From Terriglobia bacterium (GTDB lineage: Bacteria > Acidobacteriota > Terriglobia > 20CM-2-55-15): a stretch of 64,000 bases of DNA. Below, piece after piece: positions 8,587-60,684 of the stretch (its first letter is position 1; each line of letters opens with the position of its first letter). The position numbers were made by a program, and so were the translations under genes. Below the pieces are notes generated by a model, which was given only the letters and a program-made list of their open reading frames with translations, was not told where the DNA came from and made no database searches. The stretch covers positions 256,001 to 320,000 of the forward strand of contig CBDAOY010000004.1 of NCBI GenBank assembly GCA_965198225.1, in the 5' to 3' direction.

Positions 8587-9049
8587 ATGGACTTCGACCC
8601 CATACGCGCCATTGCCATGATCCTGATCGGGTCGTTCGCGATCGACCGCGTCGTTACCGGGCTTTTCTTCCTGCTCTCCTACGATCCCGACCTGCGCAAG
8701 TCGTTGGATCCGTCGTCGGTCACGGATCCCCGGGAGCAGGCCGAGGCGATGAGGAACTACAAGTTGCTCTACGCCATTCTCGGAGGGTATCTGGGCACCG
8801 TCGTCATTGCCGGCTACATGAACATCCGGCTCTTTGCCTCGACGGTGGTACCCGGTAGCGAGTTCATCGGAGACTATCCCCTGCTCGACATCTTCCTGAC
8901 CGGCCTGGTTCTGCTCGGCGGAGCCGATCGCCTGGCGGAGGCCCTGAAGATGCTCGGTGGTTCGGGGGTTCCCGCTAGCAGGATACTCCGCTCGAGATCA
9001 GCGGAAAGCTGGTCGTGGAGCAGTCGACGACGCGAAGCGACAACGCCTA
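8587..9049 (+). CDS. Hypothetical membrane protein, probably frameshifted near 8978
   Basis: AAGGAGG RBS; 3 TM segments; alternative frame gives a plausible C-terminus QDTPLEISGKLVVEQSTTRSDNA* that avoids overlap with the opposite-strand gene. Confidence 0.6.
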
Positions 9050-9063
9050 GTCGAGACAGTTTT

Positions 9064-9650
9064 CTATTCTCCCGACTTGCCCGACTTGCCGGATTTGTCC
9101 GATTTGCCGGATTTCGCTGACTTGCCCGACTTGTCTGATTTGCCGGACTTGCCCGATTTTTCCGACTTATCCGATTTGGCCGACTTGTCGGACTTCTCCG
9201 ACCGGCCGTCGATCGCGGCAGTGACGCTTTCGGTTCCCCGGTCATCGCCGACGATCAGCGTGATTTCTGCTGGATTGACCGCAAAAAATCACCCGCATTC
9301 AGCCCGCCGGTAAAGCCTCCTTGAGTATTGGATATTTTCTGCTCCGAAGCGACCGTTCCGTTGGCGTTCATGAAGAGGATCCAGACTGCGCCGCTTTGTG
9401 GACCAAGGTCATCGTCGTTGTTTGCTCCCACCGCCAGATCCGTGACACCGTCGCCATTCAGGTCGCCGAGGTTCGCCACCGAGGCACCAAAAGCGTCGAA
9501 GTCGTCCAGCGTTCCAACGAAGTTTCCCGCTAAATCCGATATCTTTTGTTGCGAACTTACCGTCGTTGCGGCCTCCGCCCACCTGGTGGTTCCTGCCACA
9601 AGCATTCCTGTCACCAACACCGCTGCTGCCACAGTTTCTGCGCGCTTCAT
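9064..9650 (-). pseudogene. FG-GAP (integrin-like beta-propeller) secreted protein with internal deletion or frameshift and an xKS-repeat tail
   Basis: Signal peptide and one FG-GAP repeat (FGASVANLGDLNGDGVTDLAVGA); breaks at GDF near 9282, then another frame reads NPAEITLIVGDDRG...(xKS)14-GE-stop. Confidence 0.65.
9070..9200 (-). repeat. Degenerate 9-bp tandem repeat encoding (E/D/A/G)-K-S x14
   Basis: Minus-strand translation SEKSDKSAKSDKSEKSGKSGKSDKSGKSAKSGKSDKSGKSGKSGE; K and S codons vary synonymously. Confidence 0.85.
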
Positions 9651-25384: not shown

Positions 25385-25608
25385 GTGTAGGTGCGCTCTA
25401 TGAGCGTGACCATCTCATTTAGCGTCGGGCCCACCGTCCCGCACAGCTGTTTGGTTTGGCGAGGGCGTCTGCGGCCTATCTAAACCGGCTATTTCGGGAG
25501 CGCCAACGCCGGACGGTCCCCCCACGCCACTGTAGGTGCGGTCTATGACCGCACACTCTTCGAGTCGGAACGATGTGCGGTCATAGACGTCATAGACCGC
25601 ACCTACAC
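25385..25608. repeat. Composite REP element (single REP, conserved spacer, REP doublet)
   Basis: gtgtaggtgcg(c/g)tctatga(g/c)cg arms; spacer shared with 30230-30412. Confidence 0.85.
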
Positions 25609-25618
25609 CCATCTACTA

Positions 25619-26776
25619 CTATCCAATCATCACGGTTCTCGGGAACTGGGCGTGGTTCTCCAGTCCGGTCATCTTCTCGTCCAGGCTTTCGCGCTGGACA
25701 TTCCCGTTTTCGTCCGTCACCCGCGAAACCAGCGTGTGTTCGCCTGGTGTGGCGCCGTCCCACATGTAAGAGAACAGCTTCCAGGAGTACTTTGTGTTGG
25801 ACGACTCCATGGTGGCCGGCCGCCAGGCCCCATCATCGACCTTGACCTCGACCGACCGGAGCGGGGTCCCGTCGTTCAGGACGAAGCCGAGAACCTTGTG
25901 CCGGTCTCCTTCCCGCGTAACGCGGGCGATGACCGACTTCAACTGCAGCTTGCTGATGGCGGTTTCCTTGTACTTCACCTCCCCGTCGATCATTTCCGCC
26001 CTCAGAGTGCGATAATGGCGCGCCTGGAACTTGCCCAGGTACCGCTTCTCCTGGACATGGATGTGGGCCAGCCACTTGACGTTGGAGACGCCATACCACC
26101 CTGGCATGATCACGCGCAAAGGGAATCCCTGGTGTCGCGTCAGCGGCTCGCCGTTCAGAGCGTAGGCCAGGAGTGGCTCTCCGGTCATCGCGGTTTCGAT
26201 CGATATGCTGCGTCCGAATTCCTGCTCGACGTTGTAAGTCCGACCGCGGAACTCGACTTCCTCTTCGCCCTTATCGGCGCCGAAGAAGACCACCTCCCGG
26301 CCCGCGGGCTTCGCGCCGACTTCGTTGAGCAGCGTGCGCACCGGAACGCCCGTCCAACGCCCGTTCCCGACCAGGCCATGGATCCGGCGCGGGCTGTTGC
26401 CGGAGCACTCGAAACCGGCCGCCAGGTCCTCGCCGGCCATCCGACGCAGGTCGCCGATGGAGAGCTCCATCGGGCTATCGACCAGGCCGGTCACTTTCAG
26501 TCGAAAACTGGCGCCGTCGATTTCCGGTTGGCCATAGTGCTGCACGGCGAAGAATTGATCCCGGGGAGTAAACGGACCGTCGATCTTGCGGATGTCCAGG
26601 AAACGGACCTGCTCGCTCGGGTTCGTGTTGAAGTTCTCGGGAATGTCGGTAAACGGCACGAGCATCTCGCCCTGGGCCAGGGCGGGCAGAGCCCATTCCG
26701 GAACGCCCATTGCCGCCAGCCCCGCCGCCGCCAGACTTCCCCTGAGGATTTCTCGACGCGTGATTTCCTTCGCCAT
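25619..26776 (-). CDS. Tat-exported sulfite-oxidase-family molybdoenzyme
   Basis: ITRREIL Tat signal; FECSGN Mo-ligand Cys; GFPLRVIMPGWYGVSNVKWL. Confidence 0.9.
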   Translation of the reverse strand: MAKEITRREILRGSLAAAGLAAMGVPEWALPALAQGEMLVPFTDIPENFNTNPSEQVRFLDIRKIDGPFTPRDQFFAVQHYGQPEIDGASFRLKVTGLVDSPMELSIGDLRRMAGEDLAAGFECSGNSPRRIHGLVGNGRWTGVPVRTLLNEVGAKPAGREVVFFGADKGEEEVEFRGRTYNVEQEFGRSISIETAMTGEPLLAYALNGEPLTRHQGFPLRVIMPGWYGVSNVKWLAHIHVQEKRYLGKFQARHYRTLRAEMIDGEVKYKETAISKLQLKSVIARVTREGDRHKVLGFVLNDGTPLRSVEVKVDDGAWRPATMESSNTKYSWKLFSYMWDGATPGEHTLVSRVTDENGNVQRESLDEKMTGLENHAQFPRTVMIG

Positions 26777-52211: not shown

Positions 52212-52655
52212 ATCTCTACCCGGATACCTCACGTTCTCAAACGGCCACACCTCCAACATCCACCGCTGAATCCTATCAAACAGGTCCCCATCCAGCATCT
52301 CGCATTCCTCCTTCCGAACCCACATGAAGACATCGGCATCTGCCGTTTCAGACGGATAGATGTAGACGCATCCCAGGCAGCGTTCTTCGTCCAGGCTCAT
52401 CATCGTAAAGGCGAATGAGGAACATTTCTGGAATTCTTTCTGATGCCAGCCCAGGTCGATCAGGTCCTGTTCCAGGGTGAGGCCTTCCGGCCACGGGGAG
52501 GTGGAGTCGAGCACGCCTTTCAGGTGATCGATACTCGACATCACCGCGTCATAGTCCTTCACGACGTCGTTGATGGTGAGTATTCGCAGGCGGTAGCGGT
52601 CGGTTTCGATACCGACCGGTACGTCAAAATCGTCGGGTACCAGCCTTCTGGTCAT
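52206..52655 (-). CDS. GNAT (RimJ/RimL-like) acetyltransferase
   Basis: DYDAVMSS, WP, HQKEF and CLGCVYIYP pattern. Confidence 0.75.
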   Translation of the reverse strand: MTRRLVPDDFDVPVGIETDRYRLRILTINDVVKDYDAVMSSIDHLKGVLDSTSPWPEGLTLEQDLIDLGWHQKEFQKCSSFAFTMMSLDEERCLGCVYIYPSETADADVFMWVRKEECEMLDGDLFDRIQRWMLEVWPFENVRYPGRDV

Positions 52656-54208
52656 GGCAGCGGCGGCGTGCTCACGGGCGGGCGTCGATGCCGCGTGGCC
52701 TGTTCGTAGGCATACACGAACCTGATCAGGGTGCCCTCGTCAAATGCGCGGCCCACGAACGACAGGCCGGCGGGAAGCGTGCCGTCGACGTAGCCCATCG
52801 GGACGGTGATCGCCGGAAAACCCGTTCCCGGTGAGAGGCGCTGGCTATTGTCGCCGTGCGGGGAGGAAAGATCTCCGACCAGTCGTGGGGGATTGTTCCA
52901 GGTCGGGTAGATCACAGCATCGACATTGGCGTCTTCCATTGCGCGCAGCAGAGCCTGACGCAGTTGTTCTTCGCCTTCCGCCGTGGTTTCGCAGCCGGGG
53001 TTCTCTTCGGGCGCCAGCTCCGTTCGCTGGTTGCGCTCCAGGCGTGGGCGGACCGAAAAGTGAAAGTCGCCCGAGGCGATAATCTCTTCGAGGCTTCCGA
53101 TAGGAGCCTCGTCGCCCAGACCGGCAAGGTAGCTGTTGATGTCGAACTTGAAGCGGCTGCAGCTGCCGAACCGAATCTGCCGGTATTCGGGAAGCGGGAC
53201 GGGATCGACGACGATCGCGCCCTCGCGCCGCATGTCGCCGATCGCGCCCTCCATCAACTCCAGGATCCTGGGGTCCGCGGTGTCGGTATTCGAAATCACG
53301 CGCATCACGCCGATGCGCGCACCCCTCAGGCCGTCCCTCTGGAGGTATGAGGCGTAGCTTTCTTCTTTCCTTCCCTGGCTGGCGGCCGTCACGGGATCGT
53401 CGGGGTCGTATCCGGCGATCGCGTCGAACACCGCCACGGCGTCGGCCACGGTTCGCGCCATCGGTCCACCGATATCACGGGCGTAGCTGAGCGGGACGAT
53501 CCCGGCCCGGCTGGTCAGTCCCATCGTCGAGCGGATCCCGACGAGAGCGTTGTGCGAGGACGGACCACGGATCGAGTTGCCGGTGTCGGTACCCAACCCA
53601 ACGGTCCCAAAATTCGCGGCGATCGCCGCTCCGGTCCCGCCGCTGGACCCGGCAGGCACTCGGTTCAGGGCGTACGGGTTGAACGTGTATCCAGGGATGG
53701 TCGACCCGATCGTCTCGTACGGGGTGAACGCGAACTCCGCCATGTTGGACTTGGCCAGGACGATCGCTCCGGCTTCCCGGATCCTGCGGACCTGGAAGGC
53801 GTCCTTCGACGACACCCAGTTTCCGAACGACGCGGAGCCGGCTGTGGTGGGCAGGTCGATAGTTTCGTAGTTGTCCTTGACGATCATCGGGACGCAGTGG
53901 AGCGCACCGACCGGGCCGGATTCGGCGTAGGCACGATCCAGTTCGTCCGCTCGCGCCAGGGCGTTCGTATTGACGACGATGATGGCGTTCAGGGAAGGGC
54001 CTCTCTTGTCGTAGGCCTCGATTCGATCCAGGTAGTGCTGGACCAACTCGCGACACGACAGGCTGCCGGTTTCAAGCGCCGAGTGAATGTCGCTGATCGT
54101 GGCCTCTTCGGTCCGGTAGAGGTCGAAGCCCTGAGCGCCGGCGTGGGCGCAGAAAATCAGAGTCGTCCATATCGGCAGGCACCGACAAAGGTTCCAGGCT
54201 CTCCTCAT
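52652..54208 (-). CDS. Amidase signature family protein
   Basis: VKDN, GSSGG and GTDTGNSIRGPS (Ser-cisSer-Lys triad). Confidence 0.93.
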   Translation of the reverse strand: MRRAWNLCRCLPIWTTLIFCAHAGAQGFDLYRTEEATISDIHSALETGSLSCRELVQHYLDRIEAYDKRGPSLNAIIVVNTNALARADELDRAYAESGPVGALHCVPMIVKDNYETIDLPTTAGSASFGNWVSSKDAFQVRRIREAGAIVLAKSNMAEFAFTPYETIGSTIPGYTFNPYALNRVPAGSSGGTGAAIAANFGTVGLGTDTGNSIRGPSSHNALVGIRSTMGLTSRAGIVPLSYARDIGGPMARTVADAVAVFDAIAGYDPDDPVTAASQGRKEESYASYLQRDGLRGARIGVMRVISNTDTADPRILELMEGAIGDMRREGAIVVDPVPLPEYRQIRFGSCSRFKFDINSYLAGLGDEAPIGSLEEIIASGDFHFSVRPRLERNQRTELAPEENPGCETTAEGEEQLRQALLRAMEDANVDAVIYPTWNNPPRLVGDLSSPHGDNSQRLSPGTGFPAITVPMGYVDGTLPAGLSFVGRAFDEGTLIRFVYAYEQATRHRRPPVSTPPLP

Positions 54209-57544: not shown

Positions 57545-58095
57545 CTACCGGATGCGAATGCTGCCCGACGATGTCCGAGGCCGGATCTGGACACCGCCGC
57601 CGTTGACCTGGCCACTGAGTCTGTTTCGGCGCTGGTTCTGGGTTGTGATGGGCTGATCCATCGAGATCGAGCCTGACGATGTTTCCGCGTCCAGGTCGAA
57701 GCCGAACTGTGCGGGCAGGTCGAGCGTGATTCCGCCCGAGCTTGCACTCACGCTCCAGTCGTCGGTGGGTTCTCCGTCGACTTCGATGTCGCCGCTACCC
57801 GAGCTGGCGCTCAACCCGCCTCGGATATCTCGGGCCTCGATGTCTCCGGAACCCGTACTTATCGCGACGTCTCCCGGGCCGGACTGTTCCACCTCGATCT
57901 CGCCGCTGCCGGTCTGAGCCTGGAACGAACCCGCGATTCGCTCTGCCGTGATGTCACCGCTGCCGGTACGCGCCTCGACGTCGCCGTCGATGTTGCTCAA
58001 CTCGACGTCTCCGGAACCCGAGGTCACCTCGACGGGCCCCGCCACATCCATGACGTCCTGGTCTCCGGATCCGCTGCGTGTTTGCACTTCCGTTA
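57545..58095 (-). pseudogene. 3' fragment of a DUF4097 (putative adhesin, beta-strand repeat) protein
   Basis: Repeated T/S-GSGD units and terminal TSSGSIRIR; no start or signal peptide; upstream in-frame sequence is not protein-like. Confidence 0.7.
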
Positions 58096-58129
58096 CCTCG
58101 ACAAGCTGGAAAACGGCGCCGCGCCCAGT

Positions 58130-58640
58130 TTTGTTCCCTCCCCGTGGCATTTTTGAGCCATGCGAAATGGGAGCGGCATCCGATGTGTTGCGAGTGTGCA
58201 GATGTTTGAATGAACTTTGCCGTCGCCGGACCGGATGGAAGGCCAAGGGTAAAGCGTGCCACTCCAACCCGGAGGCACCGGCGTTCGAGGGTTGACCAGC
58301 TATCCTCCTCTGGACCCTCTGAAGGCGGCAGCGCGGGTTGGATTCCGTGCCGCCGATTTCGAACGGCAACGGGTTTTTTCTCGGTACGCCTGCGAGAGCG
58401 GGTGTGCCGCCGTGTCGGCAGGCGTTGGGGAACGTGCTGCTGCAGGTGTGGCTTGCTGCGGGCTGCACCTGCGGACACGGTTTGCGCATTACCTTCCGTT
58501 TCCTTGCCGCCGCGACCGGCATCGTTCATGATGAAGGCCGGTCGGTTGTCCGGAGCCCCCACCGGTCGGAACCGTTCAGGAGCAAGCAGCCACTGGCTGC
58601 TACACTTGACGACAAGTGGCTGGAATGGTTCTGTAGCTGT
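58130..58640 (+). ncRNA. Candidate large structured non-coding RNA (family unidentified)
   Basis: At least 9 stems including a nested multibranch domain; G-U wobbles and a GAGA tetraloop work only on the + strand; no credible ORF; boundaries approximate. Confidence 0.6.
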
Positions 58641-58642
58641 TT

Positions 58643-59395
58643 ATGTCCTCAGAAGATAGGAAGGATTCCTCACCAACGGCGCCGCGGATTCTCGTGGCCG
58701 AAGACAATCCTGTCAACGTGAAGCTGGCCGTGCTCCTGCTGAAGCGATTTGGCTACGACGCCGACACCGTCTCGAATGGTAGCGAAGCGCTCGACGCGAT
58801 GGCCGGCCGGGCGTACGACGTGGTGCTGATGGACGTTCAAATGCCTGTCATGGACGGTCTGGAGGCGACGCGCCGGATTGCCGGCCTCGGCGCCGGGACA
58901 CCCCGCCCGGTGGTCATCGGCATGACGGCGAATGCGGTTGAAGGCTTTCGCAAGACATGCCTCGAGGCGGGGATGACCGACTACATCAGCAAGCCGGTAC
59001 AGCCTGAGGAATTGAAGGCGACCCTCCTCCGTGCGCTCGAAGAGCGGCAGGCCACACGTCCCATGGCCGACGCCCCGGAAGATCAGACTGCCCCCTTGAT
59101 GTCTGACGCACACCTGGATTTCCTGATCCAGCTTGCCGGGCCGTTTGTCGACGATACGACGCGATCGCTGAACGAACTGTCTCGCAGAGCCGAGCGGGGT
59201 GAGCCAGCCGAGCTCGGTCGTATCGCCCATCGTCTGAAAGGCAGCTGCCAGATCTTCGGCGCCCACCACATGTCTTCGATCTGCGGGGAACTCGAAGAAC
59301 TCGGCCGTTCGGGTTCGACGGTTGCCGCCGCGGAGCTGATCTCCCGCCTGGAGGAGCAGTTTCTGCTCGTGAAGTCTGAATTGACCGCCGACTGA
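58643..59395 (+). CDS. Response-regulator receiver plus Hpt domain protein (possibly the 3' part of a hybrid kinase)
   Basis: ILVAEDN, LMDVQMPVMDG, TANA and SKP; Hpt AHRLKGS. Confidence 0.85.
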   Translation: MSSEDRKDSSPTAPRILVAEDNPVNVKLAVLLLKRFGYDADTVSNGSEALDAMAGRAYDVVLMDVQMPVMDGLEATRRIAGLGAGTPRPVVIGMTANAVEGFRKTCLEAGMTDYISKPVQPEELKATLLRALEERQATRPMADAPEDQTAPLMSDAHLDFLIQLAGPFVDDTTRSLNELSRRAERGEPAELGRIAHRLKGSCQIFGAHHMSSICGELEELGRSGSTVAAAELISRLEEQFLLVKSELTAD

Positions 59396-59554: not shown

Positions 59555-60684
59555 CTAGTGGCCTGTAACGTTGAAAGTGGGACCAGTAATGTCCCTGCGT
59601 TGAGTTAACGTTCGTGCATGACCTATACAGCTGTGCGAGTGACGCCGAAAGTCGAGCGGGAACTGCAAAGACGAGTGCGCTCCCGAGCGCTGCGGGCCGA
59701 TGATGTGCGACGGGCTCGTTTGATACTGATGCTTGCCGACGGTCAGTCGTTCTCGGTGATCCGTGAAGCGCTGGGCTGTAACCGCAGCTACATCACGCGA
59801 TGGAAGAACCGATTTCTCGAAGACGGATTGTCGGGGTTGTACTCGCGACATGCGGGCCGAGCAGTGGAAAAACGAACGCCGAAGATGGAGGCTCGAATAC
59901 TGGCGTGGACAAGCAAGCCGCCGCCGGATGGATCCACGCACTGGAGTAGCCGCAAGTTGGCCGCTCATCTGGGAACGACTCACATGATGGTCGCCCGGGT
60001 TTGGAAACGCGCCGGACTGCAACCCCACCGAATCGAGCGCTACATGGCTTCCAACGATCCGGACTTTGAGAAGAAAGCGGCCGATATCATCGGACTCTAC
60101 GTCAATCCGCCGCAGCATGCGGCCGTCTTTTGCGTCGATGAAAAGACGGCTATCCAAGCCTTGGACCGTTTGGTTCCGGTGCTTCCGCTTTCTCCGGGCC
60201 GTGCGGAACGTCACGGCTTCGAGTATTTCCGCCATGGGACGCTCTCGCTCTATGCGGCGCTGAATACGAAGACCGGGGAGGTTGTCGGCAAAACGGCCCC
60301 ACGCCACACCAGCGAAGAGTTCGTGGCTTTCCTGGCGGATCTGCTGGTTCACCAACCACCGAACAAGGAGATTCACGTTATCGCTGATAACCTTTCCGCT
60401 CACAAGACCAAGCGAGTCCGGCAATTCCTCACCGATCATCCCCACGTTCACATTCACTACACGCCGACCTACTCGTCCTGGTTGAACCAAGTCGAACTCT
60501 GGTTTGCGAAGATCGAGCGGGATGTCATCGTCCGCGGCATCTTCACTTCCGTTAAAGATCTGGCTCGCAAGCTCATGCGATACGTTCGTCATTACAACAA
60601 ACAACCTAAACCCATAAAGTGGACCTATCGGGACGCCTCCAAGCGAATTCTCCCGGACCCGATTTAACTGTTACAGGTCACTAG
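59555..60684 (+). mobile_element. IS630-family insertion sequence (coordinates include flanking CTAG)
   Basis: Imperfect TIRs TGGCCTGTAAC.. / ..GTTACAGGTCA, CTAG on both sides, intact transposase. Confidence 0.93.
59618..60667 (+). CDS. IS630 family transposase
   Basis: HTH region (THWSSRKLA), DDE triad VDEK / ADN / NQVE, TPTYSSWLN and KPIKW. Confidence 0.95.
   Translation: MTYTAVRVTPKVERELQRRVRSRALRADDVRRARLILMLADGQSFSVIREALGCNRSYITRWKNRFLEDGLSGLYSRHAGRAVEKRTPKMEARILAWTSKPPPDGSTHWSSRKLAAHLGTTHMMVARVWKRAGLQPHRIERYMASNDPDFEKKAADIIGLYVNPPQHAAVFCVDEKTAIQALDRLVPVLPLSPGRAERHGFEYFRHGTLSLYAALNTKTGEVVGKTAPRHTSEEFVAFLADLLVHQPPNKEIHVIADNLSAHKTKRVRQFLTDHPHVHIHYTPTYSSWLNQVELWFAKIERDVIVRGIFTSVKDLARKLMRYVRHYNKQPKPIKWTYRDASKRILPDPI

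Follow-up and report, generated by a model that had tools for sequence, protein, structure and literature searches.

The spacer of ~490 nt between a divergent pair of genes, DUF4097 on the − strand and REC-Hpt on the + strand, contains a compact + strand RNA structure whose core is conserved within one genus of Terriglobia at a level above that of the neighboring coding sequence. The core is found in a single copy per genome, is restricted to that genus, folds preferentially on the + strand, and occupies a fixed place before REC-Hpt. We analyzed a stretch of 64,000 nt, hereafter the window (contig C4, 256001–320000), from the genome of a soil acidobacterium of 6.4 Mb in which the spacer region is found once. 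Our preferred reading, which we hold tentatively and with slightly less than even confidence, is that the spacer encodes a new, narrowly distributed + strand RNA element that would lie in the 5' leader of REC-Hpt and act in cis. We infer from sequence that transcription covers the element, as part of the REC-Hpt transcript, and that control is exerted by one of the modes considered at the end.

The genus is represented by three further species-level genomes (G001, G002, and G003), all with the same divergent gene pair; together with the window, they represent only three independent lineages, G002 and G003 being 94.5% identical. In these relatives, DUF4097 is full-length with a signal peptide and the spacer is ~800 nt long. 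The original prediction described both flanking genes as truncated at the 5' end. For DUF4097 this is correct: what remains in the window is the C-terminal two-thirds of the gene, with homology starting from residue ~131 of the relatives, such that approximately the first 130 codons of the same-genus orthologues are missing, and window positions 58112–58140 align with the upstream spacer of the relatives (alignment A1). Together, these two observations indicate that the 5' half of DUF4097 was deleted in the window. By tblastn, query residue 20 onward corresponds to position 468 of locus L003, and the full-length relatives begin at L003:861; the DNA lost in the window comprises the signal-peptide half of the gene and ~120 nt upstream of it. 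For REC-Hpt the description does not hold, as the gene opens with a complete receiver domain and shows no truncation (Table 1).

REC-Hpt lies downstream of the element in a syntenic position in 4/4 genomes, with the core 105–162 nt 5' of its ATG and in the same orientation in each, and it is likely the gene that the candidate element controls. Searching the 34 genomes of the family gave no stand-alone REC-Hpt orthologue from any other genus. The best matches outside the genus are instead the C-terminal tails of open frames of 334 to ~1000 aa (mostly >600 aa), and we read these long frames ending in REC-Hpt as probable hybrid kinases.

Table 1. Features of the spacer and adjacent genes, in window coordinates.
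Feature	Position	Strand	Description and evidence
DUF4097 ('toastrack') gene remnant, 5'-deleted	57545–58150	−	Pfam PF13349, E 5.5e-26, residues 164–325 of the long frame
Block A	58153–58186	+	Small GGC/GCC hairpin, then GAAAUGGGAGCG...CCGAUG; blastn 91% over 34 nt (G003), 83% over 29 nt (G002)
Hairpin H1	58287–58319	+	GAGGGU/ACCCUC and CCAG/CUGG, CCUCCU-containing loop; folds and alignment A6
Hairpin H2	58324–58355	+	−24.3 kcal/mol; tail only UUU in the window; alignment A6 helix 3
Hairpin P0	58383–58408	+	11 bp, GAGA loop, four G-U pairs, abuts the junction; hairpin at the same place in 4/4 genomes
Three-way junction core	58409–58481	+	85–87% identity to relatives; 29 pairs; 93–98 bits with model R1
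P1	58410–58416 with 58474–58480	+	Closes P2 and P3
P2	58417–58441	+	Junction hairpin, GGGG loop, one bulge
P3	58442–58472	+	Junction hairpin, 7-nt loop
Helix P5	UCCGGAGC (58549–58556) with GUUCAGGA (58574–58581)	+	Predicted in three relatives; alignment A5 columns 640–652 with 672–687
REC-Hpt gene	58643–59395	+	Orphan phosphorelay gene, intact, stand-alone; Pfam Response_reg E 5.4e-27, Hpt E 5.9e-13
IS630-type (IS630-family) transposase	59618–60667		3' of REC-Hpt

When compared to 60 relatives by BLAST, the spacer yields matches in two pieces only, 58399–58483 and block A. The first piece is 85–88% identical in all three same-genus genomes, and the BLASTN search for relatives that the original prediction had called for thus recovers three further carriers of the core. 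Conservation of the core stands well above that of the gene it precedes: the core of the window is 85–87% identical to those of the relatives, while the REC-Hpt coding sequence is only 63–65% identical in DNA and 53–58% in protein, and between G001 and G002, the core is 90% identical versus 74% for the REC-Hpt coding sequence (DNA). Each of the four sequences, when folded alone, adopts the same shape, with P0 followed by P1 enclosing P2 and P3 and with junction strands of just 0–3 nt.

The pattern of variation in the core follows this shape. When the sequences are aligned by MAFFT without regard to structure (A3), each of the 116 cells of the 29 pairs is canonical, while controls in which the pairing is slid are 30–51% paired. 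Seven of the pairs vary, each on one side and each through G-U, and G-U pairs make up 15/116 cells, all of which would be A-C mismatches if read on the − strand. Bulge and junction columns hold the indels, which measure 1, 3, and 1–2 nt. The restriction of variation to G-U and of indels to bulge and junction columns favors a + strand RNA and argues against a coding region. The earlier suggestion of selection on + strand RNA folding is therefore upheld by the core, which is conserved far above the neighboring coding sequence and in which all substitutions in the 29 pairs retain pairing via G-U. There are no double compensatory changes among the 29 pairs in these four sequences from three lineages, and a column-shuffle control of the core, which is uninformative with four sequences, is not significant (380/500). 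Double changes (C-G to U-A and U-A to C-G) do occur in P0, whose distal sequence differs among the four genomes (alignment A4). A near strain found in the DNA contig sets (n = 4; ~93% identical over 58451–58834) has two pair-keeping substitutions, 58555 G>A and 58600 C>T, and also a pair-breaking combination, 58520 C>A with 58537 G>A, which produces an A-A mismatch.

Similarity beyond the core is more limited. Block A is also placed in G001 by a four-way alignment (A1), with invariant columns. Window positions 58186–58398 have no BLAST-detectable similarity to the relatives, and the best local alignment of 58186–58400 with them has a score of 22, matched by 16/200 shuffles; this marginal similarity is used only jointly with collinearity and structure counts. 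MAFFT aligns window positions 58280–58368 with a segment of the relatives, block B, in which the three hardly differ. The first hairpin of block B has its homologue in the outer helix of H1, which is 95.5% paired in the four sequences, with five pairs varying one-sidedly. H2 is 95.8% paired; both partners have changed in one of its pairs (A-U to G-C), and there are two wobble changes. Taken together in the structure-blind MAFFT alignment, H1 and H2 are 93.1% paired versus 45–52% in slid controls, with one double change; the column-shuffle control for these helices is not significant (118/500).

The relatives additionally contain two stretches that are missing from the window and match nothing in its genome. 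One follows block A and occupies ~180 columns of the alignment (at most ~175 nt), and the other is a ~130-nt domain between H2 and P0 that is closed by a long helix with three double changes between G001 and G002/G003. Conversely, a short metagenome contig (run X6) matches the flanks of the window element and has 31 other letters in place of 58250–58356, the segment containing H1 and H2. This replacement suggests that the upstream helices are dispensable or labile. By these comparisons, the conserved unit that is the candidate for function is the core, and the accessory helices come and go. Two other ideas about block A were rejected. Its pairing with the 5' strand of P1, suggested by RNAalifold, is not conserved and was not taken as a switch: in the window, its energy is −11.2 kcal/mol, and 124/255 upstream windows do as well or better. 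In a sigma-54-like reading of its GGCAC...GC hairpin, the GG-to-GC spacing is, by eye, one base short of the generally known consensus.

On the 3' side of the core, helix P5 keeps 7/8 of its pairs in the window (read by eye from the sequence), and the strain variant G>A at 58555 converts one of its G-U pairs to A-U. P5 overlaps a conserved GGAACCGUUC.GGAG block. In the relatives, this GGAG lies 9 nt 5' of an in-frame TTG or GTG, and the possible 15-codon N-terminal extension there lacks third-position bias (hand count: 4 differences at codon position 1, 5 at position 2, and 6 at position 3). In the window, 61 nt separate the GGAG from the REC-Hpt ATG, which is without a preceding Shine-Dalgarno sequence.

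In the relatives, the counterpart hairpin of H2 is GC-rich, pairs perfectly over 12 bp, runs into UUUU, and is terminator-like on the + strand (G001 and G002 were scanned, and G003 has the same H2 sequence). A terminator-like hairpin with a U-run inside a divergent spacer points to a + strand transcription unit there, and its presence in mid-spacer would be hard to explain without + strand transcription. At H2 of the window, where the tail is shorter, no terminator is called; an alternative terminator at 58346–58372 followed by six U was rejected, its energy being −12.9 versus −24.3 kcal/mol for H2. The terminator-like hairpin also underlies the strongest alternative to a cis-acting leader, which is that the spacer encodes one or two independent trans-acting small RNAs, with a transcript running from near block A to H2 and the junction core being separate or processed, with other targets or a protein partner. 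We consider this unlikely, although it is to be taken seriously. The near invariance of block B among the three relatives would suit such a transcript, as would the CCUCCU of H1, which in the window is exposed in a loop of the C-rich type that pairs with ribosome-binding sites. CcsR-type small RNAs, which have CCUCCUCCC loops (Rfam RF02791), are similar in that the H1 loop of the window exposes UAUCCUCCUC, and there is a weak CcsR1-like match from H1 (58283–58359); however, this match (E 0.46) reaches 16.2 bits where the gathering score is 65.3, and the CCUCCU of the relatives is paired inside a stem. Signals for an independent transcription unit are likewise sparse, with no sigma-70-like promoter on the + strand in the window or two relatives, no terminator called for the UUU tail of H2 in the window, and no terminator 3' of the core in the window, G002, or G003 (G003 by eye), while a scan of G001 gives two weak terminator-like sites, of which one falls within the core and the other at its 3' end. 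The replacement of H1 and H2 in the metagenome variant also speaks against a small RNA built on these hairpins, and the fixed place and orientation before REC-Hpt suits a leader equally well.

Folding energies support structure on the + strand. The 511-nt region folds to −242.7 kcal/mol on the + strand (z −5.40), with 0/100 dinucleotide shuffles as good, compared to −208.1 kcal/mol on the − strand (z −3.00). For P0 and the junction alone (58383–58481, 99 nt), the + strand has −68.0 kcal/mol (z −6.69; 0/200 shuffles as good), with the minimum-free-energy structure accounting for 48% of the ensemble, whereas the − strand reaches only −41.5 kcal/mol (z −3.48), without adopting this architecture. 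Over the four genomes, the + strand z of this piece is −6.69, −6.94, −7.00, and −5.57, and the + strand is stabler than the − strand by 6–26 kcal/mol in each. The comparison to shuffled sequence, a check named beforehand, thus comes out better than chance for both the 511-nt region and the 99-nt core. As a background, 300-nt windows were folded at 43 positions throughout the 64 kb on both strands (86 in all), each compared to 20 shuffles, which gave a mean z of −0.54 (sd 1.41) with 3/86 below −4. Windows of 300 nt within the candidate region have z of −1.8 to −4.5 on the + strand, and flanking coding windows are at ~0. The region is clearly structured and lies in the tail of this background, yet it is neither unique nor an extreme outlier in the window.

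The minimum-free-energy folds reproduce most of the stems originally proposed by inspection. They contain 58287–58319 (GAGGGU/ACCCUC and CCAG/CUGG), 58324–58355, 58513–58544, and a hairpin pair at 58585–58622, as well as the 11-bp hairpin with a GAGA loop and four G-U pairs and the three-way junction, in which CCGUGUC(58410)/GACACGG(58480) surrounds the hairpins P2 and P3. Two proposed elements are absent from the folds of the window: the local hairpin at 58256–58278 and the outer closure CGGCAA(58364)/UUGCCG(58509), which is also not preserved at the corresponding alignment columns of the relatives.

With the relatives included, the strand comparison bears on a second alternative, that the core acts as DNA in the form of palindromic operators for a transcription factor on the divergent DUF4097 and REC-Hpt promoters, with RNA folding being incidental. 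The spacer is a divergent promoter region, and P3 is a near-perfect DNA palindrome in the relatives, a 12-bp inverted repeat with a 7-bp spacer that is perfect in G001 and G003 and has one G-T wobble in G002. Folding of the − strand in the relatives is also strong (z −8.51 in G001; −4.3 to −4.5 for whole spacers), about as strong by z as that of the + strand. We nevertheless regard an operator as improbable. An operator would leave unexplained that three nested helices plus P0 all remain pairable, that the repeats of the window are imperfect as DNA and are rescued by G-U on the + strand only, and that the − strand of the window lacks the architecture; substitutions, moreover, spare both arms with the exception of wobble-compatible transitions.

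Long open frames do run across the region (for example, 325 aa on the − strand and 149 aa on the + strand), as is expected from the high GC content. Among 13 frames from the window and relatives, there is no Pfam match in the spacer, and no conservation of frame between species was found among the spacer frames, in agreement with the earlier statement that no credible ORF is present. A minus-strand 'ADTAA' frame through the core was considered and rejected: in the window, it covers 62 aa between stops, and it is shifted in G003 relative to G001/G002. A third alternative, that the spacer is a decayed coding sequence (the N-terminal part of a hybrid histidine kinase or the missing half of DUF4097) or a degraded mobile element, with structure arising by chance in GC-rich DNA, is highly improbable in light of these results. 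The idea draws on the apparent hybrid kinases outside the genus, in which REC-Hpt forms the C-terminal part of long frames, and on the rearrangement of the locus in the window, with its 5' deletion of DUF4097 and an IS630-family transposase downstream. However, when 43 long frames from kinase loci were compared to the four spacers by tblastn, the best E was 0.01, which is noise, and the sole shared minus-strand frame is the one that shifts between species. The relatives, in which both flanking genes are complete, still have a spacer of ~800 nt, and the copy number and the scan of viral contigs given next do not fit a mobile element.

The region has one copy in its own 6.4-Mb genome at E ≤ 0.001, with only chance matches of 17–35 nt at E ≤ 1, and the middle part of the relatives is single-copy across the four genomes of the genus. 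In keeping with the earlier report of no match to repeat families, we therefore find one copy per genome at a syntenic site rather than the several non-syntenic copies by which a MITE or other repeat is recognized. To examine distribution, we used a covariance model of the junction only (R1; 77 positions and 29 pairs), built from four near-identical sequences. R1 scores 93–98 bits in the four genomes of the genus, with one syntenic copy each, and finds 4 of 34 family genomes (these 34 also constitute the order as sampled), all 4 from one genus, the next best matches having E of 0.2–0.7. Across the class, it finds 4/150 genomes, or 1 of 86 genera. An exact-pattern scan recovers a single contig from metagenomes, 99.9% identical to G001, only the three known relatives from genome contigs, and no copy in viral contigs. 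Since the pattern is an exact match to 23 bases and R1 derives from four near-identical sequences, these counts apply to close copies, and diverged ones may escape.

We compared the region to Rfam release 15 (4227 families), which presumably includes the GOLLD, ROOL, and OLE models. At the gathering score, there is no match in the whole 64-kb window. At E ≤ 10, positions 57900–58900 give five noise matches (E 0.46 to 9.9, 11–20 bits), none of them to GOLLD, ROOL, or OLE, and at E ≤ 1, the homologous spacers of the three relatives (9.3 kb of loci) give nothing. Membership as a divergent representative of one of these large ornate classes is scarcely credible and already contradicted, as it has only stem density and a ~500-nt length in its favor, while the searches above return none of the three families and conservation extends over ~100 nt in 1 of 86 genera of the class. 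The original prediction had offered the GOLLD 3' domain, ROOL, or OLE as a guess, with a new class as the other possibility; the guess finds no Rfam match at any threshold tried in the window or the loci of the relatives, and it is the latter half that survives, in the form of a candidate new genus-restricted element that matches no Rfam family. The description as a large ornate RNA is weak as well. Many closely spaced stems on a single strand, extending over several hundred nucleotides, are indeed a trait in common with GOLLD, ROOL, and OLE. For those classes, however, one would expect a conserved structure of that length in many genera, whereas here, ~100 nt are strongly conserved along with three weaker helices, the middle is replaced between close relatives, and the distribution is one genus. 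The analysis removes an unsupported GOLLD/ROOL/OLE label, and of the 'large RNA', the conserved part amounts to no more than roughly one-fifth.

In placement, the element is similar to three-way-junction riboswitches, with P1 closing two hairpins 5' of a gene and a downstream helix that could mask the GGAG. The conserved core is directly upstream of REC-Hpt on the same strand in 4/4 genomes, and among features expected of an expression platform, P5 covers the GGAG in four genomes, while the terminator-like H2 is located 5' of the core and not 3'. In purine and TPP three-way-junction aptamers, the pocket is formed from several unpaired junction nucleotides or loop-loop contacts. The element differs from such riboswitches in having junction strands of 0–3 nt, no Rfam match, and a gene for signaling rather than for metabolism or transport.

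The element also resembles the orphan candidate cis-regulatory or leader motifs obtained from comparative genomics (Weinberg/Breaker-type; PMC2864571, PMC5737381, PMC8723152). Such motifs share with our element a conserved multi-helix structure, a long GC-rich spacer, a fixed orientation before one gene, a non-coding nature, and pairing-compatible variation, and the element differs in matching no curated family and in being known from one genus and three independent lineages. Among the titles and abstract openings examined on RNA motifs of Acidobacteria intergenic regions, none mentions such an element.

Under the preferred reading of a cis-acting leader, the functional core would be the ~100-nt unit formed by P0 stacked beside the tight three-way junction of P1–P3, with H1 and H2 upstream and P5 downstream as less conserved helices. 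The element would lie inside a long 5' leader of the orphan REC-Hpt gene. Because the junction has almost no unpaired nucleotides, we favor a rigid junction that may serve as a protein docking site, or as a folding scaffold or nucleus, as more plausible than a small-molecule pocket. In this capacity, the element may set the extent of leader read-through or of translation, with control exerted where transcription passes H2, where P5 masks the GGAG, or at both points. The terminator-like H2 of the relatives and the position of P5 over the GGAG fit such control of read-through or translation. In the window, the GGAG is far from the ATG and the ATG lacks a Shine-Dalgarno sequence, and the idea of an expression platform therefore rests mainly on the relatives. 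The promoter scan, which gave no sigma-70-like site on the + strand in the window or two relatives, also weighs against this reading. A fuller version, which as a whole we hold to be distinctly unlikely, is a new modular non-coding RNA of one Terriglobia genus in which the core would bind a protein or other cellular signal and gate the synthesis of the orphan REC-Hpt protein through the terminator-like and GGAG-masking helices, thus providing an RNA-level input to a multistep phosphorelay; H1, H2, and the additional helix-enclosed domain of the relatives would then be swappable modules.

The reach of the finding is narrow, with one genus and one locus per genome, and we regard it as a modest lead. 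To our knowledge, few regulatory RNAs have been characterized in Acidobacteriota, and among curated families, we found no pairing of RNA control with an orphan REC-Hpt gene. If real, the element would be a structured RNA from this phylum without relatives among the 4227 families of Rfam, and it would connect an orphan REC-Hpt phosphorelay protein with control at the RNA level.

The window differs from its three same-genus relatives in the sequence that corresponds to H1 (58287-58319) and H2 (58324-58355), the two hairpins upstream of the structured RNA core. In the relatives, this region is a near-invariant block of 80-90 nt, in which GGGGGG of the first hairpin pairs with CCUCCU, while the second hairpin has 12 bp without a mismatch, a loop of GGGGG and, after its stem, a run of U. 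This second hairpin with its U-run resembles a + strand terminator. Identity to the block falls to ~60% in the window, where the tail is only UUU. Furthermore, in a low-depth contig from sequencing run X6, window positions 58250-58356 are replaced by 31 nt of unrelated sequence between 58249 and 58357. This contig represents either a naturally occurring variant or a sister lineage, and it lacks both H1 and H2.

The relatives also contain an extra domain of ~130 nt, which is wholly missing from the window. It is enclosed by a long helix, in which three double compensatory changes distinguish G001 from the other two relatives (G002 and G003).

Features of the relatives' spacers and of the downstream neighbourhood
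Feature	Location	Strand	Details
Near-invariant block, three relatives	L004 1282-1371; L003 1250-1339; L002 1709-1798 (-)		
Extra domain, relatives	L004 ~1375-1480 and equivalents in L003, L002		columns 379-509 of A5, the alignment of the relatives' spacers
IS630-family transposase	window 59618-60667	+	DDE_3 E 1.6e-25 plus helix-turn-helix domains

In a background fold scan (300-nt windows, 20 shuffles each), three other sites were much more stably folded than shuffled sequence, namely 25501-25800 on the + strand (z -5.0) and, on the - strand, 9001-9300 and 52501-52800 (both -4.3). A further hairpin lies immediately 3' of the REC-Hpt (receiver-plus-Hpt phosphorelay) gene of G001 (L003 2494-2552, + strand); it gives a sub-threshold match to the microRNA precursor mir-2985 (34.8 bits versus 68, E 0.0003) but probably represents no more than a stable hairpin of the terminator type.

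In the relatives (L003 1645, L004 ~1650), an in-frame TTG or GTG is found 9 nt past GGAG, and this putative start would lengthen REC-Hpt by 15 codons. As it is destroyed in the window, where TAG lies 9 nt ahead of the ATG at 58643, the start codon of REC-Hpt is only putative across the genus. Directly 3' of REC-Hpt in the window is the transposase, whereas at the syntenic G002 locus its place is taken by an unknown gene of 186 aa, followed by a BCCT transporter. Thus, rearrangement has affected the window locus both upstream and downstream of the element.
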